From the IMG/VR virus record IMGVR_UViG_3300021389_000029, positions 1-54,338 of that record: a stretch of DNA of 54,338 nucleotides; one strand, written 5' to 3'. This document shows positions 30,555-53,514 of the stretch, piece after piece. Each line of letters starts with the position of its first letter. The first letter of the stretch is position 1. The translations under genes were made by a program, and so were the position numbers. Under the pieces are notes generated by a model. The model worked only from the letters and a program-made list of their open reading frames with translations. It ran no database searches and had not been told where the DNA came from. Source of the DNA: a virus. Taxonomy: Duplodnaviria; Caudoviricetes.

Positions 30555-33500
30555 ATGTCTATTGCAAGCGGATTTAGTATTCAGAGAAATGACGTTATAC
30601 AAGTGCCACATAGGCAACAATACGAAAGTCACGATGCAATTTCGGGAGATAAAATCTATCTTTTGAGATCATTGCCAGATTATGAAGACAAGAATTGGGA
30701 TTGGGATATTCGAATGGGTGAAGTTAGAACTCATCTAGAACGAGGGGCAGCTGCTTTAGCGGTGAATGGGAATAATACCACCTCGACTGGCGTTGGCCCA
30801 ACCGGAGTTTACCCAACAGAAAAAGTGGCATGGAACGCAAATGCATATACAGAAGGGTCTCTTGCAGCAGGACTAGGAACTGTTATGTACGATTCTCAAT
30901 ATGGAGAATTTGGAGCTATTGTATTCCATGAATCAGCTCAACCAATGCCGGGCGAAATAGTTGAGATTTCATATACAGAACATACAAGTAAATTTACTGG
31001 TTCTGGTGGTTTATTATATCAACTTGCACATGATATGTGTATTCACCCTTTCGATTCACCAGAAATATTTCAAGCCCACTTTGGAAATTACACAGAATTC
31101 GTGGATGATAATGCCGCCGAGGCTGGCAACCAGCGCGGCGACGTGGGCAAGGAATATGTATCTAACATTCCTTCTGCTGGTCTCGCAGGATCAAATAATT
31201 TCGCTGCATTGGGCCCAGCTGGTGCTGTCTTGACAGGTACAGCTGCAGAGGATCTAAAAGTTTTTAAAAACAACCTCTCTATAAAATACAAAGATTTATT
31301 GGATGATGACATTAAAGAGGCGACACAAAGAACTGTTCAGAATTTGTGGAAGGTCGTAAGAGAACACAAAGAAACTGCAACTATTAATATGAGCGCCAAC
31401 ACAAGCGGCGCGACAACCAATGCGGATCTTTTCGCGACGGACACAGTGCCCACAATAGCTGAAACATATAGCTTGGCCAAATTACAAGCTGCTTCGACGG
31501 CGGCAGAGATTACAGCGCAAACTATTCCACTTATGACAGACTTCCCATTAATTGAGAGCGATCTTGGTAGTGGCGAATTTAGAGTTTCTATTGACGGAAA
31601 ACTGATTAATAGAGATGATTGGATAGTTACCAGCGATGTTTCATCAAGAAGATCGACTTTTAAATTAAAAAGAACTACTGGCATGCCTTGGATTAGAAAT
31701 CTTGGAGCTGTCGAAGTCTCTATTGCATATGTCTGGGGCAAATCTATCGATGTTCCTTATGGAGCATTAGTTGGTAGACAAGGACTAGGTCCAGATCAAG
31801 TCACATCGACTTTGGCGGTTAATGAGGTATCTTTCCCACATGACGATCAGGCCTACGATAGTAATATCCTAGATGCAAATACACAAAAGTATTGGATATT
31901 TAGTAGGGCGTTTAGGTCGCCCACCAAAGTGTCACCACTTGATCCAAAAAATGCATTTTTTGGATGGCATACGGCTAGCGCAGCTACTGAGGCGACTATA
32001 GTAACAGCTCAAGAAGGATCAACTGGTCCATTATCATTGTCTGCGATCGCAACCGCCGAGGCCTTGTCGGGAAGACACAAGAATACTGCTAAAATTAATG
32101 ATTCTGATGTTATGTATCTGGAAATGAAATCTTCTGATGAATATTCAAGACCATTTCAATTGATATATCCGCGGCCGCTTACTTCGGGGTTGACGTCTTC
32201 CGATAGTGATATAAAATCTAAATTAAGAGAAATTACAGATAGATTTGTAGTCGAATCAGAAAGAGGTGTCGATCTCCTGTCTGATAGTAATTTGAGTTTT
32301 GTTAATAGTAACAGCCCTGTAAGTAATAGAAAACCACAGAAATGGCGTATAAGATTTGTTTGGGATGAGACATCACTATCTCTAAAAGTCAATGTTGGTA
32401 CAGATTTGCAAATTTTAGATGATTGTACTGTATCAACAATGCAAAATCGAGATGGAATAAAATCTCCAATATTCAGAGAGCCGGGCGAACTGTGCGATGT
32501 ATATCAAACTCCTGCTATTGGCCGTGGTACTAGTGTGTCAATTTCACGAGCGAAGTCTCAATTTTTTAGAAAATCACAAATCGAAAAAGAAATGGCTCGC
32601 AGTTATCCCATGTCTTTTAAAATGACTTGTACTGATCACGGCATGGGATTGTTCTTGTTTGATCAAGCCTCTGTTGACCAAGACGACGATTATGCATGGT
32701 TTGTAATTCAAAGACATGTAAATCAATCAACTGGACAACCGGAATTTGCAGATAAATCACCAGTACATTGTGTATATTCGCCATCAAAAAGACCGACAGA
32801 TGTGAGTACACTGACTCCATATTATTCATCTTCTGACATAAACGATATGAGCAAACCACCAACCATTTATAGTTCTCTTGCTGGTGTATATAAAACTGAA
32901 GCACCGACAGTATATATCAGTAAAGATGCTGCGTTTTTTAATGGTAGGGTAAATGCAATTGATTTTAATGGATATGGATATGCATCTGGTACTGCTCAAG
33001 GATCGGTTGCTGCAACCACTTTAGAAATTTCTGATGTAAAGGTAGATTTATTTAGAGGATTGTCGGGAAATATGTCTGCAATCAATACTGATTTGTGGTA
33101 TGAAAAAACATATTCTTTCTTTGTTAAAATTGATGACGCCATAAATCCACCAAAAATTCAAAAAGGACATTTTTTGGCATGTAGAAACAAGGCTGGAGAT
33201 GTTGACGACACAAATCCTATTATATGGGGGGGTAGAATAAAAGAATGGTTCCCATCCACTGGAAAAATTACAATTTCATCGGTAAATAATATTACTGGCG
33301 ATGAAATTCGAGGTGACAGTCTCACCGATGTTACTACTAACGCAGATGGTACTCTATTGAAATTAATTGACGCTGATACTGCGACAGATGGTTCTACTAC
33401 TATAAACCTTGAAATTGGTATGTCAAATTCTGGTGATGTTACAGATGGTACTTTCCAACCATTTGCTTCAACTGCCGAGGCGCTCACAAGAACGGCTGAA

Positions 33501-35303
33501 TACAAAAAAACAACTTTAAAGTTAAAAACTATGCCATATGTGAATATCTCTGGACCATCCAGCGAGATTACAGATTTGGCTATTACAGGATTTAATTCTT
33601 TGCCTAGAAGAAGAGACACATCTATAGCATTGAATGCGTCACCAGCGCCAGGTGCTGTTGAACAAGTTGAAAAACAAGTTACATCGGGTGTTGTTACTGC
33701 TGAGGCATTGATTCGTGGTATCACAACTACTGGTGATAATCTCATAGATGCGACACCGGCCGCCGCAAATTGGGCAATCGGAAATGACACATCTTCACAA
33801 CTCTCCCAAAATATAATTTGGCCAACCCAAATTATTGAAAGAATGTCAACATTTAAAAATGCTTCTCAAGATGGTACTGGTGTACCTAGTTCTGTAGAAA
33901 ATATCAATTTGACTAATTATGCAGAAGGTGATTCTGCTTTAATGGACATTTTATATACAGCACAACCAGAAAATGTCGATAAAGTATTTGAATCTATGGT
34001 TGTAACTTTAGATGAAGTTGAAGTTATAAGAGATTCAAAAGCATATATCCTAACTTACGATGAATGGGTAAGAAGAGGAGATCCGACTACTGTTCCTAGA
34101 TTTATGGAATCTTTAGAGGCTGCTGGTGTGACCAATCTTGGACCAAATTTTAAACTTCCTAATATAGATGCGAGTACTGTGCCAAATTTCAATGCGTTAC
34201 AGCCAGGAATGGATCCAAACGCTACAAGTAACAATATTATTTCGTATACTACACAGAATTTTACTACTGGAAAAAGATTCTTTTCAGAATGGAATACTAC
34301 AACAACAGGTATATATTCACATGTGGATAACTCTGGAAACATCATCGCGCCGGATACTACTGGCTCAGGGTTTGCGAGTGGTAGCTCAACTACACCCACG
34401 GACGATGCTGACACCGATTGGGTACAGGGTGTGGATTATCCACATTGGGTTATTGATTCTAGTAAATTGGTTGCTTCTGCCAACGATTCAAAATTGAGTT
34501 CTAAATTGCCGGGCGATGTAATATGGACAAATACAACTGGTAGAAACGAATATATGTATGATTTTTGGAATAAATCTCTTTATTTTAAGAATTCTCCAAG
34601 ATCAGGATCGTCATTCTCAATTTCTATGATCAACTACCAAACATCAAATCCAAGTCAAGGAACATATATTATTTCTACTCCCGAAGATAGAAATTTCCCC
34701 GAAACAAATATGAATGATGTTAAGTCTATTAATAGATTTATTGTAAGAGAAAAAGATGTGTTTAAACCGTGGGATTACCATGTTTCTGCAACAATGCATG
34801 AAGTAGATTCACATGCTATTATAAATCCGCAAGAACAACTTTCGATTACTCAAGGAAGAAATTTCGTATTTTCTTTCCCAACACAATTGACAAGTCAGAG
34901 ATTTTACTATCCAGAAAGTGAACTGGATCTGATTTGTGTTTCTTCTGCTGATTTTTCAACTCAAGCTGGGTATGTAGAAATTGATAAATACAATGACTCT
35001 GATGGCAAGATAACACCAGCTGGCAGTGGTTATACAGATCCAGTTCAAGTAGCTATCAACGCCGTATCGGACACCAACGAAATCAATGAAGATTTACATA
35101 AGATAAACACTACAAACGCTGGTGCTTATGGTGGGCATTTGGCGCCGGATGGATCTTACCAGATTTGGAGAAAAAATAAAAGAAGGTATGAGGGCATGCC
35201 TTCAACATTGCCGAACGGAAATGGTATGAGAATATTCTTACAAGTTACCGGATCTAGTATTTCATATAGTGATGTAGAAAATGGCTCCGCACCTGTAGCC
35301 TAA
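30555..35303 (+). CDS. Virion structural protein, paralog family member 2
   Basis: SIQRN; LAHDMC.HP; RKPQKWRIRF; VNVGT.LQI; FREPGEL; YPMSF..TCTDHG; DQASVDQDDDYAWFVIQRHVN; KPWDYHVSA; GNGMRI. Own late promoter and RBS. Confidence 0.72.
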   Translation: MSIASGFSIQRNDVIQVPHRQQYESHDAISGDKIYLLRSLPDYEDKNWDWDIRMGEVRTHLERGAAALAVNGNNTTSTGVGPTGVYPTEKVAWNANAYTEGSLAAGLGTVMYDSQYGEFGAIVFHESAQPMPGEIVEISYTEHTSKFTGSGGLLYQLAHDMCIHPFDSPEIFQAHFGNYTEFVDDNAAEAGNQRGDVGKEYVSNIPSAGLAGSNNFAALGPAGAVLTGTAAEDLKVFKNNLSIKYKDLLDDDIKEATQRTVQNLWKVVREHKETATINMSANTSGATTNADLFATDTVPTIAETYSLAKLQAASTAAEITAQTIPLMTDFPLIESDLGSGEFRVSIDGKLINRDDWIVTSDVSSRRSTFKLKRTTGMPWIRNLGAVEVSIAYVWGKSIDVPYGALVGRQGLGPDQVTSTLAVNEVSFPHDDQAYDSNILDANTQKYWIFSRAFRSPTKVSPLDPKNAFFGWHTASAATEATIVTAQEGSTGPLSLSAIATAEALSGRHKNTAKINDSDVMYLEMKSSDEYSRPFQLIYPRPLTSGLTSSDSDIKSKLREITDRFVVESERGVDLLSDSNLSFVNSNSPVSNRKPQKWRIRFVWDETSLSLKVNVGTDLQILDDCTVSTMQNRDGIKSPIFREPGELCDVYQTPAIGRGTSVSISRAKSQFFRKSQIEKEMARSYPMSFKMTCTDHGMGLFLFDQASVDQDDDYAWFVIQRHVNQSTGQPEFADKSPVHCVYSPSKRPTDVSTLTPYYSSSDINDMSKPPTIYSSLAGVYKTEAPTVYISKDAAFFNGRVNAIDFNGYGYASGTAQGSVAATTLEISDVKVDLFRGLSGNMSAINTDLWYEKTYSFFVKIDDAINPPKIQKGHFLACRNKAGDVDDTNPIIWGGRIKEWFPSTGKITISSVNNITGDEIRGDSLTDVTTNADGTLLKLIDADTATDGSTTINLEIGMSNSGDVTDGTFQPFASTAEALTRTAEYKKTTLKLKTMPYVNISGPSSEITDLAITGFNSLPRRRDTSIALNASPAPGAVEQVEKQVTSGVVTAEALIRGITTTGDNLIDATPAAANWAIGNDTSSQLSQNIIWPTQIIERMSTFKNASQDGTGVPSSVENINLTNYAEGDSALMDILYTAQPENVDKVFESMVVTLDEVEVIRDSKAYILTYDEWVRRGDPTTVPRFMESLEAAGVTNLGPNFKLPNIDASTVPNFNALQPGMDPNATSNNIISYTTQNFTTGKRFFSEWNTTTTGIYSHVDNSGNIIAPDTTGSGFASGSSTTPTDDADTDWVQGVDYPHWVIDSSKLVASANDSKLSSKLPGDVIWTNTTGRNEYMYDFWNKSLYFKNSPRSGSSFSISMINYQTSNPSQGTYIISTPEDRNFPETNMNDVKSINRFIVREKDVFKPWDYHVSATMHEVDSHAIINPQEQLSITQGRNFVFSFPTQLTSQRFYYPESELDLICVSSADFSTQAGYVEIDKYNDSDGKITPAGSGYTDPVQVAINAVSDTNEINEDLHKINTTNAGAYGGHLAPDGSYQIWRKNKRRYEGMPSTLPNGNGMRIFLQVTGSSISYSDVENGSAPVA

Positions 35304-35329
35304 GGTTTATTAGTCGGAAAAATACTATG

Positions 35330-35337
35330 TATAAATA
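35330..35337 (+). promoter_or_regulatory. T4-type late promoter (TATAAATA)
   Basis: Exact consensus followed by a TAAGGAG RBS before the ATG at 35366. Confidence 0.88.
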
Positions 35338-35365
35338 TAAGTAAAACATTTAAGGAGATCAATAA

Positions 35366-38300
35366 ATGCCAACATCAACCTCACTGAAAACTCCATTTCT
35401 GTCGGGGGGATATTCCATTCAAAGGAATGAGATGATATCAATCCCCCAAACAAGACAACGGCAGAGATTTCAGTTCATGAACGAATTTAATCAAACTTTC
35501 GCTAAGTTTGATCGAGCGGCACAAGGCCTTGGCAGAGGCGCACAAGAACAACTTGACAGAGTTCCGGCATACGAAATAAGATCAGAAAAAAGAGAAGTTC
35601 AAAATGGAGTCATTAGTTCTGTCAAAAAACCTCTAACTTATAAATTTGCAACTGGTTCTAACAAAGCTACTTTAGGAACTGTTGTTTTAACTGATTCTAC
35701 ATCTCCATTGGGCGAAGGAGTAATTCAACAGTTTGCTATTTCCAATGGTGGTCAAGGATATACGCCTGGAGCTGATTATGGAGTATGTATCAGAGGCGGA
35801 GAAGCAGCAAACAAGACCCCCCAACCAGCTAACATTACTTGTAAGGCTGATGGTAACGGTTCTATAACATCATTTACAATACATGATGGTGGACAGAATT
35901 ACACTCTCGCTGGGGATACTGGTAATGGTTATCCAGCATTGACAATGGAAATTGATGAAACTCCATTGTTAGGACAGTTTGTTGTAACAAGACTTAATGG
36001 AGAAACCGAAGATACGGGTGTGGGAGCAATAACAAGTATAGATATTACATCCACAACATTGACAGGACATAGGCCGGGCGTCTGGTTTGTTTCTCATAAT
36101 GGAAGCGACAAAGTAATTACTACCGATAGCACTGATGGTGTTGTAAATAATTTAATGATACAAGTTTTTGTAAATCAATTAGGAAAAATTAACAAAGTTA
36201 CTTTCTGTTCTTATGGCGAAAAATTTTTGGTTGGTGATACACTCACAATCCCACAATCCCAACTGGGTGGAATTCAAGACGATTCTTTGGGCGTAAATGA
36301 TTTAGTATTAACTGTCACCACAGTCGCAGATCAAAATCAAGTTGATTTAGATCATGGTACTGCAATTTGGAGAAGTGAATCTTTTGAAGCCGGTGTTGAT
36401 GTTGTTATGGAATATACAATTGACACCAATATCGACACAAAGACTGAAGATGGATTTTTAAGAACACTTGCTAAGGACCTTTGTTTACACCCATATGCAA
36501 ATTACTACAGTTCTGCATGGAGCACTGTTGCTCAAAGAAAAGCTACTCTGCAGCTGACGGGCGCTCCGCGCACTATGGTCACGTCCGGCACCGCTGAAGT
36601 GACAGCAACACTGCGCGATAGAGAAACCAATGTAGCATTAACAGAATTGACTGGCGGCTTTAAATCTGAGGATATAAAGAAGAGAATTATAGAACCCTAC
36701 GGAAGTGGTACTATGTATATTACTGGTGTGGTTGATGGTGTAGCGACTTGTACTATGCTAAAATCTGGAACTTATAATGATGAGGATGTAAATACTTGGG
36801 ATGATCCAACTCAGGAGTTCTATCTTATGGATCATTGGAGACTTTGTATAGACCAACATGCTGATCCAAGCGGCACATATCCCGATACCAATCTTGGCGG
36901 ATTCGAATCGCAACCCTATAATTTAATTTATCCTAGAATAGATGAATTTGCATCAAATCATATTCTCATTAGAGATAATGGACAACAAAATCATAGAGAT
37001 GTTATGAGTTGTATTCGTCGGATAGGTGATTTGTTTGTTGTAGAATCGGAAAAGGCGACAGATCTTCTTTCATCTTTAGCCGATGTGAGCTCAGCTTCAG
37101 TTTCTATACCAAGAACGATAAACTTAACACAACCTGTCAGAGACCAGAGAAAACCTCAAAAATGGCGTATGAGATTTTATTATGATTCAAGAGATGAATA
37201 TTTATATGTTAATGTTGGAACTTCCTTACAAATTATGGATAATGGGGATTTGACAAGTGGACAAGGTCGAGATGGTATAAAAAATGCCGTGTTTAGACAG
37301 CCAGGAGAACTGAGTGAAATTTATTATAATTTCAGTAATGATGATAATAAAGCAAAATCCGGTTTCTTTAGGAGACAGGGGAAAACTGATGACGGAATAG
37401 ATTCGAATTATCCAATGGCATATAGACTTACTTGTACTGACCACGGTATAGGATTTTTCATGTTCGATCAAGCCTCAGTCGACCAAGACGACGATTATGC
37501 ATGGTTTGTAATTCAAAGACATGTAAATAATGTCTCTGGAAAAATTGAAGGCGAAGATGGAAAATCCCCAGTTCATTGTTTATATTCACCATCAAAAAGA
37601 CCTGAAGAAACTAGTGATTTTAATATGGGATTCTTTGCTGAAGTGGTTAATAAGTTAGACCCTGAGACCGGTACGACTACCGTAACATCAAAAACTCTTG
37701 GCGATTTAGAAATTTTTGATGTAAATGGTAGAAAACTTACGCCCGGACTTCCACTAAATCAAAGTATTTTGACTTCTGGTTTTCCAGTTATGTCTAGAAC
37801 AACACCATATGGACAAGGAACAAGCTATGTAACTCCTCCATCAACAGGGGGATTGCGCCTTACAGATTCTTCTAATATGGGCACAGATTTAACCTCTGGA
37901 TATTCAAACGTCAATGATTTTATCGAATTTCCACCTGTCACCTCAACCAATTATACTGGATTAGAAAAATCTAACTTAGATGATTCAGCAGTGATTGATG
38001 AAGTACTTGCAGATGGCGTCGTAACCGAACCAGCTATATATGCTTTTCCGATGGGATATGGTAGAAATTTTGGTAGTAATTTCGTAACTGTTGGCGATTA
38101 TTATGTTGATATGAAAAATTCCACCAGATATACTGACGCATCACCGGGCAATTCAAAACCAAGTGCCTTTTTCAGATCTGCTGGCGGAGTGTCAGTGCCG
38201 GCCGAGGGTAGTACAGAGGCAGTGTCAGGCCGAGACGACATGGGATTGGCGAATTATGTTAATGCCAGAAATCAAATGCAAGGCCCAGCGAGATTGGGAC

Positions 38301-40255
38301 TCAAATTACATAGAGTTCGTCATAGAACTGCATCCGGATTTGATACAATATTGGATGTAAGTGATATTCAATTTATAAACAGATCGGAACAACCACCAAG
38401 GGTTGACAAAGATAATAAACCACTAGAATTGCCTGTTTCATCTGCCGTTGCGATATTTACACCAAAATCTTCTGCTGCTCTGAATCTTTTAAAGACTCGT
38501 AGTATCAAAATTATGTATTATGATTATGTTACTTTTACTTATGATGGAACAACTTCCACTATAATCACACCAACAATCCAAAGCGCGCTGGCGGCAGGCC
38601 ACACCGGCGGTAGTGAAACCGAACCAACGAAACAGAACAGAGCTAATTACGATACAGCGACATATGACTTTTCATCTACCATCGCCGCAATCACCGAGCT
38701 CGGTGCGGAAAATACCAGCGCGCCCCAAGACGGAACTGAAACAAATGGTCCAATTTCTATATTGAAAACAGAAATAGTACCTGTGCCAGGCCTGGCAAAC
38801 AATATTGGCGGAAACACTCAAAAATATTTTGCACATAAATCTCTATCAGATACGGATAATACTACTGAAGATACATCCGGAACTGGATCTTTTTCAACTA
38901 GAATTGGCAATGTAAATGCCGCCGGCAGCGAACAAGTTTTACCTAGAGTTGGCGATGTTGTTACTCTGAATGAATGGGTCACTGAGGGTTCTGCGGCCCA
39001 AACCCTGAGTGTTGAACCCGCTACTGTTTTGGATTCGAGCAGTGAAAGGCCTGCGGCTAGAATTACTAATATATTAAGTTCATTTCCTGAAGGTGACAGA
39101 CTTATATATGAATATGCATGGGAAGGTGCGGGACATAACAGTGAATATACAAACTTTTATGGACGAAGTGGTATTGGTTCAAATCCTTTATTCGAAACAA
39201 ATAGACTAAAAGTTTTTGTTGATGGATTAGAAGCCGATGCTGCGATTCAAGGTATAAATTATGATATAAACTCTGATGGAGAAATAGAATTTGGCGAGAC
39301 GAGTTCATCATTGGAATATTTTGGCGTTGAAAAACCAATTTATGCTTATAACACAGCAAATGATAAATTGAAATTTGCATTGCCGGTCGAAGATAATAAG
39401 ATCGTAAAACTTTCTTACGAAAATTATTCAGATGTAGAAGAACGAGATACCGGAAAATCTACATACCTAATTAAAGTACCTGAAGATAGAGATATTCCAA
39501 ATATCTGGAACGATATTCACAAAGTTTCAAAGGGCATTTATCGTTTTGTTGTTAGAGAAAATGATGTACTAAAACCTTGGGATTATCATGTTTCTGCTGT
39601 ATTGCCACAAATTGACAGTCCAGCATGTATTAATCCTGTTGAGCAACTATCAATTACTCAAGATAAAACAGTGATATTCAACTTCCCGACACCATTAGCG
39701 TCACAAAGATTTATCTATAGTGATGCAGAAGCAGATATAATTTGTATTGCTGGTGCGGATAGTTCTACTCAAGGTGGTATTATTAAAACTTCAGATACTA
39801 AGTTTGATTTGGATTCTGCACAAACTAGTGGATATATGAACGCCCTTGAATCAGACGGCACATATCCCAGCACAGCTGGAATTCAATACGGTTTTGATGC
39901 CGATGGCATAGCGGCAAATGAGGGTATAGCCAAGGTCGCAAAATCTTCTAATGGTGATTTTTTAGACTTCAGAAGAGAATATTCATGGCATAATCCATTC
40001 CAAGGCTCAGTTAATACCACCACGAGCGATGCCAATCTAGGATATCGTAGTGGTCGAGTTGCGACCGCGCCATTGACAGCATTTGATACTCCTGATAATT
40101 GTACTCATAGAACTTATTTGGGAATGCAATCTACCAAACCTTATGGTAATGGTATGAGGTTATTTATTTTGACTCGCGGCGGACCTATTAGACCTCAATA
40201 TACAGATTATACTCCTAGAGATCAAGTAGACAGTGGTTCCAATACTTTCACCTAA
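35366..40255 (+). CDS. Virion structural protein, paralog family member 3
   Basis: Same conserved blocks as member 2 (SIQRN; LAKDLCLHP; RKPQKWRMRF; FRQPGEL; DQASVDQDDDYAWFVIQRHVN; KPWDYHVSA; GNGMRL) with different inserts. Confidence 0.72.
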   Translation: MPTSTSLKTPFLSGGYSIQRNEMISIPQTRQRQRFQFMNEFNQTFAKFDRAAQGLGRGAQEQLDRVPAYEIRSEKREVQNGVISSVKKPLTYKFATGSNKATLGTVVLTDSTSPLGEGVIQQFAISNGGQGYTPGADYGVCIRGGEAANKTPQPANITCKADGNGSITSFTIHDGGQNYTLAGDTGNGYPALTMEIDETPLLGQFVVTRLNGETEDTGVGAITSIDITSTTLTGHRPGVWFVSHNGSDKVITTDSTDGVVNNLMIQVFVNQLGKINKVTFCSYGEKFLVGDTLTIPQSQLGGIQDDSLGVNDLVLTVTTVADQNQVDLDHGTAIWRSESFEAGVDVVMEYTIDTNIDTKTEDGFLRTLAKDLCLHPYANYYSSAWSTVAQRKATLQLTGAPRTMVTSGTAEVTATLRDRETNVALTELTGGFKSEDIKKRIIEPYGSGTMYITGVVDGVATCTMLKSGTYNDEDVNTWDDPTQEFYLMDHWRLCIDQHADPSGTYPDTNLGGFESQPYNLIYPRIDEFASNHILIRDNGQQNHRDVMSCIRRIGDLFVVESEKATDLLSSLADVSSASVSIPRTINLTQPVRDQRKPQKWRMRFYYDSRDEYLYVNVGTSLQIMDNGDLTSGQGRDGIKNAVFRQPGELSEIYYNFSNDDNKAKSGFFRRQGKTDDGIDSNYPMAYRLTCTDHGIGFFMFDQASVDQDDDYAWFVIQRHVNNVSGKIEGEDGKSPVHCLYSPSKRPEETSDFNMGFFAEVVNKLDPETGTTTVTSKTLGDLEIFDVNGRKLTPGLPLNQSILTSGFPVMSRTTPYGQGTSYVTPPSTGGLRLTDSSNMGTDLTSGYSNVNDFIEFPPVTSTNYTGLEKSNLDDSAVIDEVLADGVVTEPAIYAFPMGYGRNFGSNFVTVGDYYVDMKNSTRYTDASPGNSKPSAFFRSAGGVSVPAEGSTEAVSGRDDMGLANYVNARNQMQGPARLGLKLHRVRHRTASGFDTILDVSDIQFINRSEQPPRVDKDNKPLELPVSSAVAIFTPKSSAALNLLKTRSIKIMYYDYVTFTYDGTTSTIITPTIQSALAAGHTGGSETEPTKQNRANYDTATYDFSSTIAAITELGAENTSAPQDGTETNGPISILKTEIVPVPGLANNIGGNTQKYFAHKSLSDTDNTTEDTSGTGSFSTRIGNVNAAGSEQVLPRVGDVVTLNEWVTEGSAAQTLSVEPATVLDSSSERPAARITNILSSFPEGDRLIYEYAWEGAGHNSEYTNFYGRSGIGSNPLFETNRLKVFVDGLEADAAIQGINYDINSDGEIEFGETSSSLEYFGVEKPIYAYNTANDKLKFALPVEDNKIVKLSYENYSDVEERDTGKSTYLIKVPEDRDIPNIWNDIHKVSKGIYRFVVRENDVLKPWDYHVSAVLPQIDSPACINPVEQLSITQDKTVIFNFPTPLASQRFIYSDAEADIICIAGADSSTQGGIIKTSDTKFDLDSAQTSGYMNALESDGTYPSTAGIQYGFDADGIAANEGIAKVAKSSNGDFLDFRREYSWHNPFQGSVNTTTSDANLGYRSGRVATAPLTAFDTPDNCTHRTYLGMQSTKPYGNGMRLFILTRGGPIRPQYTDYTPRDQVDSGSNTFT

Positions 40256-40299
40256 TACTTTCACCGATTAAAATTATTCAAATAATCTAAAAATTTAAA

Positions 40300-40306
40300 A
40301 TAAATA
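40300..40306 (+). promoter_or_regulatory. Late promoter variant (aATAAATA) abutting a terminator hairpin
   Basis: 7/8 match to the consensus, 39 nt upstream of the ATG at 40345. Confidence 0.5.
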
Positions 40307-43812: not shown

Positions 43813-43813
43813 C

Positions 43814-46800: not shown

Positions 46801-46861
46801 TAATAATGTAGACGATGTAAGAGAATTGAGGGGGTATCCAGTTTATGCCAGCTGTAACTAG
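43814..46861 (+). CDS. Large hypothetical protein, probably structural
   Basis: Long ORF in the late operon. Likely start is the ATG at 43814 (MAVSFQGR), 1 nt after the upstream stop. GRLPECLSFDDGRLTG resembles a putative Ig (He_PIG-like) fragment. Confidence 0.6.
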   Translation: MAVSFQGRVGPIVQTVTRTIDNIIFDSNDSIEVSYVNYFFSSTEKSSSEVIVEYTDGLPLHTGPKSNSEFVAEYHHEKYVDEQKSSVIVESFNYMTGTFSSYEDRSASKKSFDFNRNIVLSNQSLLYTITGNDYKVGLQTVGDWEIRPFLQTASTKHLINNPFLDDPESKAPPWDGQVLLESGTSFSHNPIFFQGIAYNFPEPTEFISKTSKLINENSNFSRHLESFNLLNQNFARSMHISNPTTHDVIEMKSGLYVMQPEMFNKSNTIYRSLGYGPPADKAVSISLTVSNPRDTFSKNNQFSKLLDNYSSKDDEFVEIVKNTTLNDVTWVDKIKVLNFEFSKTAYFERTNPLEVPVKVFYTPVLDKPFIHKVFFVNFDIGKPKFKPFLQSPDKTFLIEQNYMHSTVSIGKGPKNKFKHLMIEELYRPGFRSYEQVYEFIMEKFEVVSSTQFDYNKFGHTFYEVIQTKRPSLSGGSNAFGHDLLPIEVGPTSIKNKIFNLEEHVENSLQAAGRSGTHRDGEYREIQNIDLYEFQYLDYDVKSKGPYSEDWRLDKEKSTFNFIYTIDEDPSNGRLPECLSFDDGRLTGTVHETDKFLRKYSWEDWMKIQGETDSDGNFISLSDSLDFSYEDFELITPRKWEVNLTGRSITKGTIDLVYNGVELKRGDIITQTIAGQSSEFEIVEKVSEFDKETDRATGGLITETIHRYEFENLRGEIEITTLTDLFVETFVDGKSELQKEVNNLQEELQFSVNFKASVLQKQIEELSATIIENDLVNPTGYAYIEKTPSGKQVNYQYVLNEEGDSFVVDDLEMLTGGVVTKFIKLIFTIRNNWSFDRDLRLFTDSSIIDSEFPNRTDWVEDQRSKGRGLFDPQLNNNEIDKMLIGYMKEYKDSIISIERYLEERDIIIESRIYIDPDQKIKYKNFLDRFIYIDRKSNMWQKNDYLIMSITSEDFFLEFPINDGIDRGQSLDTISETENGKQVFKINCDFNVDEQTFYNNVDDVRELRGYPVYASCN

Positions 46862-47783
46862 ATTAGGAGATCGATGTACTGGTCATGGTTGTCACCCGCC
46901 TCGACCGAATAGATCAGCAAGTACAGATGTATTTGTAAATAGTAAGGGAGCACATAGAAAAGGCGATGGATGGCATGTTCATGTATGTCCACCAAAAATA
47001 TATGCGCCGCACGGTTCAATTCTCGCGGCCGGTTCATCGTCAGTTTTTGCAAATGGAAAACCAATCGGAAGAATAAACGATCCAGTTGCGTGTGGTTCTT
47101 ATGTTCGAGATGGAAGTGGAAATGTTTTTGCTGGAGATAGTTCTCCACCTGTGCCACCTTTATCGGATGTTCCGGTAGATATCTCGCAAGAACATGAAGA
47201 TTATATGAAAGAAGGAATAATTACCGCGCCAAAGAATAGTGAAACTTTTGAATATGGTGATGGTGGAATATCTAATGGCGATGGTGGATACTTATCAAAT
47301 AATACAAGTCCTGTAAATAATGTTACTGGACCACAAGATGCTCCAATAGAAGATAATAGTGTTCCATTTGAAAGAGTTGATGATCCAACATTGAATTTCT
47401 TACCACACACAGATTCTAGAATTGAACCAGCACTGAAAAATATTCTTATTGAAGTTGCTAAAGAATGGGGCCGGACACTTGATATAACCAGCGCCTATCG
47501 CAGTCCAGAGTATAACAAAAAGGTTGGTGGGGCTAAAGGAAGTATGCATCAACAGGGTAAGGCTACCGACATTATAATGTCTAGTTATAGCAAAACCGAT
47601 AGGGCAAGATTTATTGATATATGCGTTCAAAAAGGAATAAAGGGTATTGGATTGTATAATACTTTCACTCACATTGATATTGGAGGCAAACGGGCATGGG
47701 GATCAAATGGCAGTAGAACAAGTATTCCAAGATTCCCTTGGGCGATATCTACTTTGAAAAAACATGGTTATGCTACTGGTTGA
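46845..47783 (+). CDS. PAAR spike-tip protein (gp5.4-like) fused to a C-terminal peptidase M15A domain
   Basis: MPAVTRLGDRCTGHGCHPPR....S.DVFVN.KGAHRKGD.W..H.C.....H...LA.GSSSVF.NGK..GRI.DP..CGS.V..GS.NVF.G is a gp5.4-type PAAR. ITSAYRSPEYNKKVGGA.GSMHQQGKATDI...GIGLY.TFTHID is Peptidase_M15_3 with intact SxHxxGxAxD and H ligands. Confidence 0.9.
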   Translation: MPAVTRLGDRCTGHGCHPPRPNRSASTDVFVNSKGAHRKGDGWHVHVCPPKIYAPHGSILAAGSSSVFANGKPIGRINDPVACGSYVRDGSGNVFAGDSSPPVPPLSDVPVDISQEHEDYMKEGIITAPKNSETFEYGDGGISNGDGGYLSNNTSPVNNVTGPQDAPIEDNSVPFERVDDPTLNFLPHTDSRIEPALKNILIEVAKEWGRTLDITSAYRSPEYNKKVGGAKGSMHQQGKATDIIMSSYSKTDRARFIDICVQKGIKGIGLYNTFTHIDIGGKRAWGSNGSRTSIPRFPWAISTLKKHGYATG

Positions 47784-47790
47784 TATTTGT

Positions 47791-47798
47791 TATAAATA
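47791..47798 (+). promoter_or_regulatory. T4-type late promoter (TATAAATA)
   Basis: Exact consensus followed by an AGGAG RBS before the ATG at 47818. Confidence 0.88.
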
Positions 47799-47817
47799 AT
47801 ACATAGGAGATTTTTAA

Positions 47818-48735
47818 ATGGCAGGCGCATTTCCACTCAAGGCTATTGTACAAACTACCGGAGATGTTGTACTTGGAGAGTTTTTAGAATCTGATTTCGT
47901 TGGCATTTTAGACGGCGGAACTGGTGCAGGCGGTAATGGTGGACTCCCTGATACTGCCACCGATTCGGAAAAATTATTAGCAATAAAAGGTCAAGTAAGA
48001 TCAAATTTTGATTTGATAAAATTTGATACATATAATACATTGGCAGAACTACAATCTGAGGTTGCTGATAGTGGTCGTTTAGCTTTGCTTAATTCTAATT
48101 TATATTATTCAACTGGTTCTAGTTGGATAGCTCTTGCAGAAGCATTGACGGTCGATACTAATATTACGGGAAATATAGAATTTGCTGGTAGTATAATTTC
48201 GACATATGATCCAACTACAAACACTACAACTGCAAGTTTAGATCTTACACCATTGCAATCCGAACTTGATACGACACAATCAGCAGCAGGACTAAATGCG
48301 GATGGGACTTATACTGCCGATGGCACCACTAATTATTTGACAACCTCTACATCTTTGAAAGATTCTGATGGACTTCTGGATTCTGCTATATTCTCAGAAA
48401 GAACCAGAGCTATTGGCGTAGAAACAACAATTATTACAGATCAAAACACCATAGAAAATAACTTGCAAAATTTTGAATATTCCGGTCATACAAGCGCCCA
48501 AGTGTCTGCAGCGGGTAAAGTTAGTATTGCTTATGATATAAATACTGGCAAATTCGTACCTGATGATAATTTTGGAACTGGTGGGTTTATAAAATTTACA
48601 AAAACTAATGGTACAAGGGATGATATTCCATTGACAACTACATTTACAGGTAACGAAATGACCAGTGGTGAAGTAGATTTTTTCATGGCAAATGGCACAC
48701 AGGATAATATCGATCTCATTATTAACGGTGTGTAA
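47818..48735 (+). CDS. Short fibre-like / adaptor virion protein
   Basis: N-terminus resembles that of the ORF at 53603. QSELD.TQ...G....GT.....NYL.....L.....LLD module is shared with the ORF at 23965. Duplicated C-terminal F...NGT.D.I.L motif. Confidence 0.6.
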   Translation: MAGAFPLKAIVQTTGDVVLGEFLESDFVGILDGGTGAGGNGGLPDTATDSEKLLAIKGQVRSNFDLIKFDTYNTLAELQSEVADSGRLALLNSNLYYSTGSSWIALAEALTVDTNITGNIEFAGSIISTYDPTTNTTTASLDLTPLQSELDTTQSAAGLNADGTYTADGTTNYLTTSTSLKDSDGLLDSAIFSERTRAIGVETTIITDQNTIENNLQNFEYSGHTSAQVSAAGKVSIAYDINTGKFVPDDNFGTGGFIKFTKTNGTRDDIPLTTTFTGNEMTSGEVDFFMANGTQDNIDLIINGV

Positions 48736-48743
48736 TTTTTTTT

Positions 48744-48751
48744 TATAAATA
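48744..48751 (+). promoter_or_regulatory. T4-type late promoter (TATAAATA)
   Basis: Exact consensus; AGGAG RBS before the ATG at 48796. Confidence 0.88.
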
Positions 48752-48795
48752 ATAAAAACAAACATGCACAGAATTAAAATTATAGGAGCACATAA

Positions 48796-51700
48796 ATGTC
48801 TATTTCAATAAACAGAAATGAAATTGTCCATATGGATGATTATTACAGAGATAGGAAAAGAGAGACCTTCAAACCACTAATCCAACAGATGTCCGAAGAT
48901 ATGTTGGATAATGGATTTAAAGATGTAGGTCCACAAATTACTAAGATTAGTATCAATGATGATAATTTAACACAATTTATCGATGAATTTATTTGTTTTT
49001 ATTACGATTCGAGTGTTGGTCAAGTTGGAAAAGGTGCCAGCGGTATAAATGTTTTTGGCAAGGTCGCGGATTATGATACCGGCACATCTGTGTACACCAA
49101 CCGAAATGAAGTTGGAAATTTAAGTGCTACGACATACTTTCTTGATGGAGAAAAAGGTAGTAGAATTAAAAAAATTGATGATATATACGACAATCCAAAC
49201 TGGAACGAAAATATTGCTAAAAAAATTCCAGCGATTGGATATCCCAATTATACTATTAGGGAAGGGACCCATTCGACGAACTCTAAAGACAATGCTATTA
49301 CAGGAACATCTAATTATCCGGCTGAATTCTTTAAAGCTACTGACGGAACTGCTATTACACACGTTTCTTCGTTGATTCCAAACTATACAAAGGAGGCAGA
49401 TAATCTAAACTGGGGCGATGAGGACGCACTGGAACTTGACACAAGTGTTTTTGGACAAGTATTAGGTCCAAATTCAGAACTTTTTGCATATTTAAATCCA
49501 CATCCAAATATGCGCGGAAGTACACAAGCAATAAGAGATTTTATTGCACCAAACTTTCCATCTAGTCCTTCAAATGGAGATACCCACACAATACATACGA
49601 ATGATGGTCCGGTCATCTATACATATGATGGTAGTATTTGGAATGGTGCAGACGGATCTACACATACCGGAACATCGACTTTAGATTCAAGTGTTCTCAG
49701 CGATGGAGGTAGTGTTAAAGGAATTCCATTTGGTTCTGGATGGAAAGATATAAATGATTTAGTTCCTTCAAGTGGATTTACCTGGCCCACTCAAGCCGGT
49801 GCTTATAAAGAACGTGGCGATCGGACAGATAATTCGCGGCCACTGGATTTAAAGGACGGACATTTTTATAAAAAAACGCCAGGGACCCCCGATATAGCGA
49901 CCGGTTCTGAAGTAATCCTAGTAGGCCTAGCAAGTGCAACAGAATATGCTGAAAAAGGTATTACAGATAGCACTGGATGGGACTTCATCACCACCGGAAC
50001 CCCCGACGCAACTGCGACCCCACCCACCACTTTGCCGCCAACGGCGTCCAGCAGCAAAGCAGGCCAGTCAACTTCTATCCCCGTATACCGAACTTTGCCT
50101 GCTTATCTTAATCAAGCAGGATATGTTGGATTGTCAGAGATTTCGAAAGCGGTATATTTGAACGAATTTAATAAAGTAAAAACTCTTCTTACACACCAAT
50201 CTCGAGGTGTTGTTATGCGGCCAGATTCTGCATCTGGAGTCAATACAAAAGCAACTATTAGAAATTATAGAAAAACTGTAGAAGAAAAAGGCCCAGACAC
50301 ACATGATTTTTGGATTTCAAATTATAAAGACGAAAACTTTTTTCCAGCAGGAACAGTAGAACCTAAAAAATTCGAAGGCGAATTGATGATTGGTTTTGAT
50401 TCGACATATAACAATAATGTGTTTCAAACTGGCGATGTATATACTTTCTCTTTTATCCATACTGCATTTGGCGCTGGAGCACAAACATTTACAATTCCTG
50501 TAGAAGTTGTACAAAGTACTGTAGCCGGATTCAGCAATTCAGTTTTTGAAGCTCTTTCAAAGAATCAATTATTTGATCCTGCATCCGGAGCATATTCTGT
50601 TGTAGATGGTGGCACTCTGTCTCCCAAGAGAAATGGTGTGTTAATTATAGAATCTAACAACATTGGTAGCAATTTGACGTCATCTGTTTCAAGAGTTGCA
50701 AGACCTATGGAGAGTTTTACTAATAATATACAATCATATATTGTAACTGATAACAACACACTATTCAATTCTACAATGACTAATGGCGATGGTGGTACGG
50801 CTTACACCTTAAACACATTTGAAAATGGATATGTACATGAAATTCAATTGCGCGGGTTTAGTGGCGCAAACAACGATGATGAATTTGAGTTCACAATAAA
50901 TAATCTGTTAGATGAACTTCCTAATGGTGGACTGGCAGATGTAAATAATCCAGCACTCAGAAGTGAAACTATTTACTTTAAGACAGGTGTTGCATTAAAC
51001 TCAGGTCAATTAACAGAGGCCATAGCTGCTAAGATTAGACAAAACGCATATATGAATAAGTATATGGAAGTTATATCAAATTCAAATGCTATTACTCTCA
51101 GATATAATAGACTTTCTTCTGGATATATGAAAAAGGGTGATGTTGGAAAAAGTCATGGATTACTTGCTGCAAATAGTGTCGCCCAAGGCGGCACAGGATC
51201 CGTATTGTTTACTGGCAAAACAGTAGGACAGACAAATTCCGAAGAATTTTCTATAAATGGTATCGCAGAAGAGGATGTTCCTGCCGCAGCAAAATTCAAT
51301 ATTGTGGGTAATGCTGTTTCCGGTTCTACTAATATAACTGCAATGCGAGTTGCAGCGGACGGAACATCTGCATCTACAGATACCACATATCTCGCTGCAA
51401 CGCTTCTAGATGAGAATGATTTTACTCCTGCTAAAACTGTAGACACAACCGGAGATCCATTCAACTATCGTGGAGATAATGGCGCAGTCGAAGTGATTCA
51501 AGTGGGGTTAGGAACATCTATTAAAAGAGTTAGATTAGAATTTCCTTTGGCGAGAGATTTAGGTACTTTTGCGATGCCGGTTCATGGGCAATATACAGCT
51601 TATGTTGCTCCAGCAACCAGTAGAAAAACTTCGTATTTTTCATCATATGAACAAATGGTGCTTGCTAAAAAGACGGGCAGACCAGAAGGTCCACAAGTTT

Positions 51701-53514
51701 CTTTCGATTCTATTGTAATTGCACAACACCCAAATACTTCACATGGCGGAGTTCAAAATGGTATAGTAGGTTATGAAGAGTTTGAAACTTATTCTCACGA
51801 TATTGATATTGAAACTTTCGAATATATCACAGATTATTCTATGGGTCCAGTAGTATTAGAAACCGATAGACTTCACAAATTATCGGGTTATCCAACTGGC
51901 AGAGAGGGTGAAATAGAAGGTGATCAACCTTGGAGAATAAGATTGAATATCACCAGAGGACATGAAATCCAAGAAGCTTCTCCTTATATTGCAGATGCAG
52001 TTTTGCAAGTTAATCCTGAGCAAGATTCTTCTAATTCTTTTGAATATTTACAAGTTCATGTAGCTACAGAATTTCAACTTAAAGGTGATGGAACTGTCGC
52101 AAAACCCGAGGGGAAAGATGGTCTCTCCGCTGTCACCACTATGAGAGAACCGGGCCATTTGGGTGGACTCAGACCCCAATATAAAGGGTATTTAGAAACT
52201 GCTGTTCATAAGGTAAATCCTTTTGTTCAAAGATCGAAACTTGACAGCGGAGTTAGAACTGGTTTTAATTTTAGTTCGGGAGTTGTCGGTATCCATCATT
52301 TCAATGATAGTCATGAACTGATGTTGGATCACTCATCAGTATTTACTCAAGAAGTCATTGCGGTGCCAGCATCGGGCAGCGGCGCCACGGCCGTGACCGC
52401 CGTAGCAGGCGTACCGAAGTACTTTTCTGTTGGCGGCGAGGGTGAAGGACAGATTCCATTAAAAGTGGTTGGATCAAGAATTATGACAGATTATGATTCT
52501 GGTATTTTAGTAAATGATGAGTATAGATATGAAGAACATTATTTGAGGGGTACATCTACAGAATTGGTACATGATACACCATATAATAATGGAAATTTAA
52601 GACTGCAAAAAGGATTGTTTAGAAGAACTGGGAAATCAAGATCAGATATTGCTCCAGCATATCCTATGAGTTATTATATGACAATTGTTGATCATGGAAT
52701 TGCATTTTATCTTAGAGATCAAGCTTCAACACAGGCAGATGATAATGCATTTTTTGTTGTACAAAGACATGTTCATTCTTCGGCAGAAGTTGGTAATGGA
52801 ACCACAAGTGCGCCTCAATTTCGTGCTGGTTATCCTGATATGGGAATTGATGGAAGTGATCATCAACCAATTCATTGTGTATATCAATCTTCAGAACCGA
52901 CATTGTTGTATTCTGATTTAGAACCACTCTTTACAGAAAAAGATTTGTCAAGAAGATCTTCTATTGCAAATATGGGACTATACGATCTTGAAGGAAATCA
53001 AACATTTGACTTTATGACATCAAGACTAGAATCAGCTGAGATGTCATCGGTAGATTTGGAAACTCAAAGTAGATTTAGAAGATTTGTTGTTCGAGAAAAA
53101 GATGTTCTAAAACCTTGGGATAGACATGTATTTGCTGGAGTTAATGAAAGAGATTCTACTTCTATTATAAATCCACTTGAACAACTATCTCTCAATGACC
53201 GTGGAAAACTTGTAATTCAATTTCCAAATAGATTGGGATCGCAAAGATTTATGTATACCGGCAGAGAAATTGATTTGATCGGTTTCTGTGCTGCTGGCGC
53301 GGTCGGACAAGATACTTTGATTAGTAGTGATAGGATGAGTACAGCCGGGCAAGGTGGTACGGGATCTGATGGCGATTATAGAAGATTGTATAGAGGGATG
53401 ATGTCAACTGGTGAGTTTGGTTCGGGGATGAGAATTCTTCTTCTAGTAGCAGAAAATGCTGCAGGCGATTCTATTATGCCTACCAATGCCGACATTAGAT
53501 TACTGGACAATTAA
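48796..53514 (+). CDS. Virion structural protein, paralog family member 4
   Basis: SINRNE; QPWRIRL; MREPG.L; YPMSYYMTIVDHG; DQAS..ADDNAFFVVQRHV; RFVVREKDVLKPWDRH; IINPLEQLS; FPNRLGSQRFMY; Y.GM.STG.FGSGMRILLL. About 1000-aa insert near the N-terminus. Confidence 0.72.
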   Translation: MSISINRNEIVHMDDYYRDRKRETFKPLIQQMSEDMLDNGFKDVGPQITKISINDDNLTQFIDEFICFYYDSSVGQVGKGASGINVFGKVADYDTGTSVYTNRNEVGNLSATTYFLDGEKGSRIKKIDDIYDNPNWNENIAKKIPAIGYPNYTIREGTHSTNSKDNAITGTSNYPAEFFKATDGTAITHVSSLIPNYTKEADNLNWGDEDALELDTSVFGQVLGPNSELFAYLNPHPNMRGSTQAIRDFIAPNFPSSPSNGDTHTIHTNDGPVIYTYDGSIWNGADGSTHTGTSTLDSSVLSDGGSVKGIPFGSGWKDINDLVPSSGFTWPTQAGAYKERGDRTDNSRPLDLKDGHFYKKTPGTPDIATGSEVILVGLASATEYAEKGITDSTGWDFITTGTPDATATPPTTLPPTASSSKAGQSTSIPVYRTLPAYLNQAGYVGLSEISKAVYLNEFNKVKTLLTHQSRGVVMRPDSASGVNTKATIRNYRKTVEEKGPDTHDFWISNYKDENFFPAGTVEPKKFEGELMIGFDSTYNNNVFQTGDVYTFSFIHTAFGAGAQTFTIPVEVVQSTVAGFSNSVFEALSKNQLFDPASGAYSVVDGGTLSPKRNGVLIIESNNIGSNLTSSVSRVARPMESFTNNIQSYIVTDNNTLFNSTMTNGDGGTAYTLNTFENGYVHEIQLRGFSGANNDDEFEFTINNLLDELPNGGLADVNNPALRSETIYFKTGVALNSGQLTEAIAAKIRQNAYMNKYMEVISNSNAITLRYNRLSSGYMKKGDVGKSHGLLAANSVAQGGTGSVLFTGKTVGQTNSEEFSINGIAEEDVPAAAKFNIVGNAVSGSTNITAMRVAADGTSASTDTTYLAATLLDENDFTPAKTVDTTGDPFNYRGDNGAVEVIQVGLGTSIKRVRLEFPLARDLGTFAMPVHGQYTAYVAPATSRKTSYFSSYEQMVLAKKTGRPEGPQVSFDSIVIAQHPNTSHGGVQNGIVGYEEFETYSHDIDIETFEYITDYSMGPVVLETDRLHKLSGYPTGREGEIEGDQPWRIRLNITRGHEIQEASPYIADAVLQVNPEQDSSNSFEYLQVHVATEFQLKGDGTVAKPEGKDGLSAVTTMREPGHLGGLRPQYKGYLETAVHKVNPFVQRSKLDSGVRTGFNFSSGVVGIHHFNDSHELMLDHSSVFTQEVIAVPASGSGATAVTAVAGVPKYFSVGGEGEGQIPLKVVGSRIMTDYDSGILVNDEYRYEEHYLRGTSTELVHDTPYNNGNLRLQKGLFRRTGKSRSDIAPAYPMSYYMTIVDHGIAFYLRDQASTQADDNAFFVVQRHVHSSAEVGNGTTSAPQFRAGYPDMGIDGSDHQPIHCVYQSSEPTLLYSDLEPLFTEKDLSRRSSIANMGLYDLEGNQTFDFMTSRLESAEMSSVDLETQSRFRRFVVREKDVLKPWDRHVFAGVNERDSTSIINPLEQLSLNDRGKLVIQFPNRLGSQRFMYTGREIDLIGFCAAGAVGQDTLISSDRMSTAGQGGTGSDGDYRRLYRGMMSTGEFGSGMRILLLVAENAAGDSIMPTNADIRLLDN

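Follow-up and report, generated by a model that had tools for sequence, protein, structure and literature searches.

Short patches rich in G/C-ending codons mark hypervariable segments in three giant paralogous genes of an uncultured, AT-rich marine phage. The patches are sharply bounded, raised in both synonymous and nonsynonymous divergence and present as indel alleles, and their variants are clustered in a mosaic. They are probably lineage-specific segments exchanged as old alleles by short-tract recombination (probability roughly 0.6). Co-circulating strains would bear differing, old alleles of each segment, which would pass between otherwise near-identical genomes via homologous recombination over short tracts, with the conserved AT-rich flanks as anchors; their diversity is presumably maintained by diversifying selection on host recognition.

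The window, i.e. the whole stretch of DNA analysed here (54,338 nt), covers ~27% of the genome of the source phage. It is a fragment of a T4-like myovirus in which a baseplate module is followed by a host-recognition cluster downstream of a VrlC-like DUF4815 gene (16741-23751). The three paralogs (~1600 aa) come after this gene, in the tail-fibre region (Table 1). They matched no Pfam, NCBIfam or PDB family, a search with family profile A1 found no PDB relative of paralog 1, and AlphaFold2 modeling of its residues 1001-1572 (31-row alignment) yielded a mean pLDDT of 44.7, which is too poor for structure mapping. The labels 'surface loop' and 'receptor binding' are therefore given on genomic position alone, and a role of the patches in receptor binding is putative. 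Within a phage collection, a near-identity DNA search gave no matches to the window and a protein search gave distant matches only (22-35% identity).

Table 1. Paralogs and patches of G/C-ending codons in the window (GC3 as G/C-ending codons out of all codons)
Feature	Position	Strand	GC3	Remarks
Minor patch	25886..25906	+	7/7	Another structural gene; divergence hot spot 25889-25915 (7/27 nt)
Paralog 2	30555..35303	+		1582 aa; family unassigned; in host-recognition cluster; phrog_12249 match; blocks common to other paralogs
Patch	31113..31151	+	12/13	Hypervariable; 13 differences/39 nt vs G001, 100-nt flanks 2+2; three alleles
Patch	31392..31451	+	14/20	Hypervariable; allele with 3-nt indel
Moderate patch	34340..34440	+	15/32	Varies in L015-L017 lineage and runs X6, X15, X20
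Paralog 3	35366..40255	+		1629 aa; ORF; blocks common to other paralogs
Patch	36548..36616	+	16/23	Same sequence in G001; replaced in L015-L017, starting a ~300-nt divergent block
Moderate patch	38183..38251	+	13/22	Deletion alleles; 18 nt missing in G001
Patch	38576..38731	+	29/52	Both ends vary, middle constant
Paralog 1	48796..53514	+		1572 aa; ORF; blocks common to other paralogs
Strongest patch	49981..50067	+	21/29	Core of divergence segment 49926-50082; lineage-specific insertion
Patch	52354..52440	+	20/29	A/V/G/T/P-rich putative loop; 3-aa indel alleles

Gene-wide GC3 is 0.21-0.28 across all 19 ORFs of the window. An earlier note on this DNA had counted G/C-ending codons by hand, and its counts were reproduced exactly and in frame: 12/13 at 31113-31151, 16/23 at 36548-36616, 21/30 at 49981-50070 and 16/21 (with 0 T-ending codons) at 52360-52422, next to 5/20 and 3/20 in control 20-codon samples at 52261 and 52501. 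As a null model, synonymous codons were shuffled within each gene, which preserves protein and codon usage and by design removes amino-acid bias, rightly set aside in the note, as an explanation of the signal. The three paralogs contain 19, 25 and 42 windows of 20 codons with ≥ 12 G/C-ending codons, where the shuffles predict 2.0, 1.3 and 0.9. Among the other 16 ORFs, 2537-3886 alone stands out (6 windows vs 0.9 expected). The top segments have p-values of 0.003, 0.002 and 0/2000 over 2000 shuffles, and the second-best segments were matched in 0/2000 shuffles in all three paralogs. Clustering far above chance is therefore a feature of the paralogs and of hardly any other gene in the window. 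Neighbouring sequence and GC12 have a small but real effect; in the other genes, the link between GC12 and GC3 lifts GC3 only from 0.20 to 0.28.

Six segments exceed the 95% null of their own gene (31113-31151, 31392-31451, 36548-36592, 38576-38731, 49981-50067 and 52354-52440), as do three minor ones (3623-3676, 25886-25906 and 53714-53755). Six further patches had been listed by eye; 31390-31520 (GC3 0.51) and 38580-38740 (0.53) are strong and 34340-34440 (0.47) and 38140-38300 (0.41) moderate, whereas the signal at 38910-39060 (0.38) and 40010-40080 (0.39) is weak and would fail multiple testing. As supposed in the note, the significant patches avoid conserved blocks and lie outside those common to the paralogs; the weak patches 32169-32201 and 35055-35084 touch such common blocks. 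At the significant patches of paralog 1, mean column conservation is 0.09-0.21 (0.54 protein-wide) and the gap fraction 0.48-0.86 (0.14 protein-wide). A search of the patches for a shared motif or Chi-like site returned only generic GC-rich k-mers, enriched on both strands, and 0/22 tandem-repeat rows (TRF, minimum score 30), the mark of slippage, overlap any patch.

The close-genome comparison proposed in the earlier note was based on metagenome assemblies throughout: the window, G001 (a relative with 96% identity) and L015-L017 as a third lineage. A metagenome scan with the middle gene returned 4 loci, so that DNA of paralog 1 comes from two lineages only. Between the window and G001, the six significant patches differ at 73/474 nt (15.4%) and the rest of the paralogs at 412/13635 nt (3.0%), an excess with p = 0.0004 against random patch placement; 36548-36592 is the exception, with 0 differences. 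In the alignments, divergence is concentrated in the patches, and the flanks are identical or nearly so. The dS and dN are 0.204 and 0.146 in the patches, compared to 0.038 and 0.010 in non-hot sequence. Since synonymous sites have diverged as well, with a patch dS ~4-5 times that elsewhere, positive selection alone is insufficient. Greater mutability of G/C sites was considered and rejected, as it would give an estimated ~1.6-fold more third-position change against the 4-5-fold higher dS.

The association was also found starting from divergence. Segments defined by divergence alone have a GC3 of 135/315 (0.43) in the paralogs, against 940/4338 (0.22) elsewhere in them (Fisher 7e-16), and of 57/189 against 1510/7378 in the other genes without the repeat gene (p = 0.002); 2-4 codons beyond a divergence edge, GC3 has dropped to the background level. 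Hypervariability also occurs in several AT-rich segments (29973-30015, GC 0.21; 34727-34769, 0.23; 54064-54105, 0.26), hence GC-richness is no necessary companion of variability.

Independent assemblies and proteins give the same picture. Protein variants inside 90% clusters differ at the patches, indel alleles included, with variable columns at 44/73 positions in patches vs 126/1499 outside for paralog 1 and 33/90 vs 105/1539 for paralog 3; cluster 2 was not relied on, as a single partial protein with a poor alignment (P0078) inflates its outside figure (300/1504). At 49981-50067, 28/29 columns are variable across 12 cluster members, and all 8 differences of a 1.4-kb contig (X3) fall in 49926-50068. 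Contigs of other metagenome runs skip or replace exactly the patch stretches: 36564-36679 is skipped by contigs of 3/4 runs, 3 letters stand in place of 38191-38240 in run X15, and runs X6 and X20 have 104 nt in place of 149 nt in the 49981-50067 region.

Sharp divergent segments thus stand in near-identical flanks, and their raised synonymous divergence points to older alleles, as in a recombinational mosaic. Relationships conflict along the sequence, judged on runs of lineage-private sites: over 475 informative sites, these variants form 178 runs, where 313 ± 10 are expected (three lineages only), and such clustering would also follow from a locally raised mutation rate. Variable patch positions fall on third, first and second codon positions in the ratio 41, 30 and 20, the pattern of ordinary old divergence. 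Pairwise, L015, L016 and L017 differ at 5-9 sites, 0-1 of them within patches, which implies that the patches do not change in every genome. Divergence from G001, variants within 90% clusters, contigs of other runs and mosaic clustering bear out the earlier suggestion that short stretches are replaced or diversified; short-tract exchange probably accounts for this.

Short-tract exchange leaves the GC3 excess unaccounted for. This excess is intrinsic to the segments and present in all alleles available as DNA. We tentatively suggest that, in this phage lineage, a local, persistent GC-favouring process may act specifically on the host-recognition loops that strains exchange, for which biased heteroduplex repair at recombination hot spots or ongoing exchange with a GC-richer cassette pool could be responsible. 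Of more specific accounts, import of GC-rich segments from a higher-GC gene pool (e.g. phages sharing hosts), as inserted or replaced loops retaining donor codon usage, is possible but rather doubtful. It agrees with the composition of the patches, which have a GC of 0.63 raised at all three codon positions, move toward G/C-ending codons in every amino acid and have an Arg CGN:AGR ratio of 5:4 (38:160 elsewhere); Arg itself is scarcer than random GC-rich DNA predicts, by an estimated random expectation. The sharp composition edges also fit import, as does the GC3-richness of lineage-specific insertions in paralog 1 (75/186 vs 264/1346 elsewhere, p = 2e-9). At 49981-50067, a long P/A/T-rich form alternates with short, N/S/T/K/E-rich alleles (7/12 protein alleles), again as import would have it. 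The trait is moreover lineage-specific. In pelagiphage HTVC008M, 2/32 large genes have p < 0.05, none of them a fibre gene. Of the 17 distant orthologue loci, 14 carry no patch, and the remaining three, all from one lineage, share a single recurring one.

The 'higher-GC donors' of the earlier note did not materialize: no donor was found, and the GC3 of relatives (0.19-0.37 over the 17 distant orthologue loci) nowhere exceeds 0.37. A 26-nt patch core has 0 matches in viral_contigs and 1 in genome_contigs; the latter lies in an actinobacterial MAG, keeps the reading frame and has no similarity in its flanks, and we attribute it to chance identity. Patch changes polarised over three lineages balance (W>S 36 vs S>W 39), so that recent imports would be no GC-richer than the alleles they replaced.

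Alternatively, GC-biased heteroduplex repair (biased gene conversion) at local recombination hot spots could steadily drive the segments to G/C, which we consider unlikely. Consistent with it, a correlation of GC3 with divergence and mosaic segments is seen in the paralogs and, at lower strength, in the other genes, and in the 89%-identical L014 lineage these loci have retained or increased their GC3 despite third-position turnover. At patch third positions, 20 S>W changes stand against 14 W>S, where AT bias predicts ~27:7 (binomial 0.005), a comparison made unsafe by polarisation over three recombining lineages that exchange alleles. Varying conversion tracts, however, do not predict composition edges sharp to 2-4 codons, and a number of hot segments are rich in A/T. 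T4-like phages recombine generally, yet HTVC008M and 14/17 distant orthologue loci have no patches, and the literature searched yielded no report of this kind of bias in phages.

Selection for clusters of rare codons, e.g. as translation pauses between folding units of very long fibre proteins, with variability as a separate matter, appears very unlikely. In this genome the rare codons are those that end in G/C, and GC3-richness persists across diverged alleles (89-96% relatives). Against this, such clusters are lacking in the HTVC008M fibre genes and at the same 14/17 loci, in relatives of which most have no such loops at all, codon positions 1 and 2 are GC-enriched too, the raised dS is left unexplained, and 0/8 patch segments fold into RNA structure beyond that of shuffles (z -1.57 to +0.51).

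Targeted hypermutation by a diversity-generating retroelement (DGR) or some other mutator located beyond the window, the other process proposed in the earlier note, would suit variability restricted to short parts of putative host-recognition proteins in a genome of which ~27% is in hand, but is highly improbable, since PF00078 matches 0/2 records (window and G001, 27% and 22% genome fragments), at least 10 unrelated patch sequences would require equally many templates, indel alleles are present, and the near-identical L015-L017 are stable at the patches. A template search (blastn-short, 7 patches vs window, G001 and L014-L017) recovered orthologous copies only, with no second copy, silent cassette or template of any patch. 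Variation in the order third, first, second codon position, the common invariant A (72 A and 33 T among 278 invariant patch positions) and the lack of a template or RT match in these searches argue for short-tract exchange rather than DGR-type mutagenesis.

Hypervariable host-recognition segments of phages are well known, and locating them usually takes many genomes. Here, a composition signal from one genome delimits such segments to within 2-4 codons, in proteins without known family or structure. If the link extends to other lineages, the loops that determine specificity in uncultured phages could be predicted cheaply; if a local GC-favouring process is at work, hypervariable receptor-contact loops would be predictable to within a few codons from a GC3 spike in one genome alone. 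That GC-rich codons persist where this AT-rich genome changes fastest is also relevant to whether phage genomes are shaped by biased repair or by cross-lineage cassette traffic. In the literature searched, we found no paper describing GC3 spikes that mark hypervariable phage segments.

DGRs, such as that of the Mtd type in Bordetella phage BPP-1, generate localised variability in phage receptor-binding proteins. The patches differ from DGR targets in that no template repeat, RT, adenine-specific pattern or per-genome variability was found in the sequences searched. In recombining bacterial genes, GC-biased gene conversion leaves a higher GC3 where recombination leaves marks; this likeness is shared by the patches, which by contrast span tens of bases with sharp edges. 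The gp37/gp38 tail-fibre adhesins of T-even phages carry hypervariable segments between conserved motifs (PMC3157838, accessible part). Both systems concern T4-type host recognition (putative here) and place short variable segments between conserved stretches able to anchor recombination. The paralogs, with 0 Pfam families, have no sequence relationship to these adhesins; their flanks are ordinary AT-rich coding sequence rather than the glycine-rich motifs of gp37/gp38, and a GC3 spike at the variable segments is not mentioned for gp37/gp38 in the accessible part of that paper. In pelagimyophages and cyanomyophages, the host recognition cluster (HRC) is a variable tail-fibre region downstream of the VrlC gene (PMC7029224, accessible part), and in the window, likewise, the VrlC-like gene precedes the paralogs. 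HRC variability is described there as gene content, whereas here it acts on a scale of 40-150 nt inside 96-97%-identical genes and carries a composition signature.

Within the window, ORFs have a background third-position GC content (GC3) of 0.21-0.28. Short GC3-rich patches had been reported in three large paralogous proteins (paralogs 1 to 3, Table) from hand counts, and all four patch counts and both control counts of that earlier note proved exact on recount. The permutation test it had proposed was performed gene by gene, with codons permuted only between sites that encode the same residue. Clustering exceeds the shuffle expectation in all three paralogs: 19, 25 and 42 windows of 20 codons contain ≥ 12 G/C-ending codons, where the shuffles predict 2.0, 1.3 and 0.9. 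The remaining 16 ORFs include a single significant case in this test, the baseplate/tail gene 2537-3886; its patch (3623-3676, + strand, 12/17) lies outside the coverage of the relatives. A maximal-segment scan with the gene-specific 95% null as cutoff delimited six significant patches (Table), the best and second-best segment of each paralog having p ≤ 0.003 (2000 shuffles). The six additional patches previously described as visible are of uneven quality, with two strong, two moderate and two weak. On the coding strand, the patches consist of C (0.35), G (0.28), A (0.24) and T (0.13), G/C is enriched at all three codon positions and codon usage is shifted towards G/C-ending codons for every amino acid. 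A local link between GC12 and GC3 is general in other genes, yet small, raising GC3 from 0.20 to 0.28 only.

Features of the window, with nucleotide differences from the close relative G001 for each significant patch
Feature	Position	Strand	Basis or module	Differences vs G001
GC3 segment above 95% null	31113-31151	+	maximal-segment scan	13/39
GC3 segment above 95% null	31392-31451	+	maximal-segment scan	9/60
GC3 segment above 95% null	36548-36592	+	maximal-segment scan	0/45
GC3 segment above 95% null	38576-38731	+	maximal-segment scan	19/156
GC3 segment above 95% null	49981-50067	+	maximal-segment scan	25/87
GC3 segment above 95% null	52354-52440	+	maximal-segment scan	7/87
gp48/gp53-like proteins	window first half	+	baseplate	
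gp5-like hub	3883-6192	+	baseplate	
gp6, gp7, gp8-like wedge proteins	window first half	+	baseplate	
DUF4815 (VrlC-like) protein, 2336 aa	window first half	+	baseplate module	
Large protein under study (paralog 2)	30555-35303	+		
Large protein under study (paralog 3)	35366-40255	+		
Large protein under study (paralog 1)	48796-53514	+		

The viral contig G001 is collinear with window positions 12394-54338 at 96-97% identity, and a metagenome scan yielded four further loci: L014 (89% identity) and L015, L016 and L017, which form one lineage (0.1% apart mutually, 3.5-4.6% from the window and G001). Differences between the window and G001 are strongly clumped and the clumps coincide with the patches, with 73 differences in 474 nt for the six significant and 48 in 249 nt for the six weaker patches, versus 412 in 13,635 nt elsewhere in the paralogs; random patch placement attains the observed divergence with p = 0.0004. 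Nei-Gojobori estimates are dS 0.204 and dN 0.146 in the patches versus dS 0.038 and dN 0.010 outside both the patches and the hot segments. The sole significant patch identical in G001, 36548-36592, has another allele in L015-L017 (~20 changes, with an identical left flank), where it starts a ~300-nt divergent block.

The same concentration is found in protein clusters at 90% identity, where variable columns amount to 44/73 in patches versus 126/1499 outside for paralog 1 and 33/90 versus 105/1539 for paralog 3; the figure for cluster 2 is distorted by one partial sequence. Indel alleles are present among cluster members, which come from contigs of up to ~150 kb, and patch 49981-50067 comprises six allele classes in 12 sequences. 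The stretch was found in 20 runs from 17 studies (2 possibly the source). When contigs of four runs were aligned to window positions 34000-53999, 36564-36679 was skipped in three runs, 49925-50075 (149 nt) was swapped for 104 other letters in two (X6 and X20, where the allele is short and N/S/T-rich), and 38191-38240 was swapped for three letters in one. All eight differences in a 1396-nt contig of run X3 fall between 49926 and 50068. The comparisons with close relatives, protein clusters and run contigs thus bear out the claim that short patches are replaced or diversified.

For the reverse test, segments were set solely by divergence from G001, composition not being used. In the paralogs, GC3 is 135/315 (0.43) inside divergent segments and 940/4338 (0.22) outside; in other genes, it is 57/189 versus 1510/7378 (p = 0.002) without the tandem-repeat gene and 87/330 versus 1731/8385 (p = 0.015) with it. 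GC3 falls from 0.42 inside the divergence edge to 0.31 at 1-2 codons, 0.25 at 3-4 codons and 0.23 at 5-7 codons. Not all hot segments are GC-rich; exceptions include 29973-30015, 34727-34769 and 54064-54105.

As to the source of the GC excess, two observations suggest a continuing GC-favouring force on the patches: third-position G/C to A/T and A/T to G/C changes occur at 20:14, where the AT bias of the genome predicts ~27:7 (p = 0.005), although exchange of alleles makes such polarisation unsafe, and the L014 lineage keeps its GC3 peaks despite third-position turnover. The data do not establish that the patches were imported. An import would fit the codon shift, the sharp composition edges and the lineage-specific insertions of paralog 1 (GC3 75/186 versus 264/1346). 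It would also fit the restriction of the trait to certain lineages: among 17 orthologue loci of distant relatives (GC3 0.19-0.37) no patch occurs in 14, the remaining three, of one distant lineage, share a single one (L024, L025 and L038, 38% identity; significant, residues 440-456, 13/17 codons), and only 2 of 32 large genes of HTVC008M reach p < 0.05, neither a fibre gene. However, a search for a donor found none, every allele observed at the DNA level has a high GC3 (0.48-0.92), and polarised changes are in balance (39 G/C to A/T, 36 A/T to G/C). Positions 52375-52400 are identical over 26 nt to an actinobacterial MAG (L040, genome_contigs), with the reading frame and the 9 encoded residues also in common. 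No similarity beyond these 26 nt was found; the match is due to chance and shows that codon choice in this patch is typical of high-GC organisms. The GC-rich patches are not explained by RNA structure, by tandem repeats or by a shared motif.

Regarding the mechanism of variability, odd-lineage identity at 475 sites in three lineages forms 178 runs versus 313 ± 10 expected, and such clustering is what short-tract imports produce. Variable patch positions are distributed over third (41), first (30) and second (20) codon positions and the amino acid sequences are partly conserved between alleles, a pattern of ordinary long divergence under constraint. Targeted mutagenesis by a diversity-generating retroelement (DGR), the kind of process the earlier note had also considered, is not supported. 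A and T are frequent among the 278 invariant patch positions (72 and 33), and of the 5-9 sites that separate the near-identical L015-L017, 0-1 fall in a patch. Searches found no second copy of any patch in the window, G001 or L014-L017, and no reverse transcriptase (PF00078) match in the window or G001 fragments. The clustered private sites, the ordinary-divergence pattern and the evidence against a DGR lead us to read the patches as putative cassette-like loop alleles. These would be exchanged by short-tract homologous recombination, the likely mode, and their diversity may be kept up by selection. Of the earlier proposal of micro-recombination with higher-GC donors, short-patch replacement and probable recombination are retained, whereas the donors find no counterpart in the donor search or the balanced changes.

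The window is a 54-kb viral contig (~27% of the genome by estimate) with all large ORFs on the + strand and T4-type baseplate proteins in its first half. Its gp6 homologue shares only 35-37% identity with its counterparts in Methylophilales phage Melnitz, Pelagibacter phage HTVC008M and cyanomyophages, and its gp5-like hub contains a Peptidase_M15_4 domain at the place where T4 gp5 has lysozyme. The three large proteins had no family match in Pfam, NCBIfam or PDB searches; they resemble each other and a 781-aa protein (28147-30492) only in blocks (35-54% identity). A phrog_12249-like region common to the four is unbroken in the 781-aa protein and paralog 1, and paralogs 2 and 3 carry it as two blocks ~600 aa apart, an arrangement suggestive of a large nested insertion. 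Over a 195-nt stretch (32603-32794 versus 37408-37602, seen via G001), paralogs 2 and 3 share 81.5% DNA identity, far more than the protein identity of the block around it (46%), so that gene conversion between them is possible. Mid fibre cluster, 46845-47783 (+) encodes a fusion of a PAAR motif with an M15 peptidase domain, with a divergence hot spot at 47012-47040 (GC3 5/10 in the window versus 0/10 in G001). Gene 40345-43812 (+) has 42-nt (14-aa) tandem repeat arrays at 41535-41940 and 42913-43536; 84 nt of the first (41544-41627) are missing from G001 and the second differs at many sites. Unlike other hot segments, these arrays are without GC3 enrichment (30/141 versus 221/1007).

Full-text searches on GC-rich hypervariable regions of fibres, on phages and biased gene conversion, on fibre genes with clustered rare codons and on raised GC in the variable parts of RBPs listed no published account of hypervariable GC3-rich micro-segments in fibre genes of phages. 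For pelagimyophages, PMC7029224 describes a 'host recognition cluster', which the genes 3' of the window's VrlC-like gene match in position. We read the patches as a case of a known kind, the mosaic hypervariable segment in host-recognition proteins of phages; what is new is the compositional marker.
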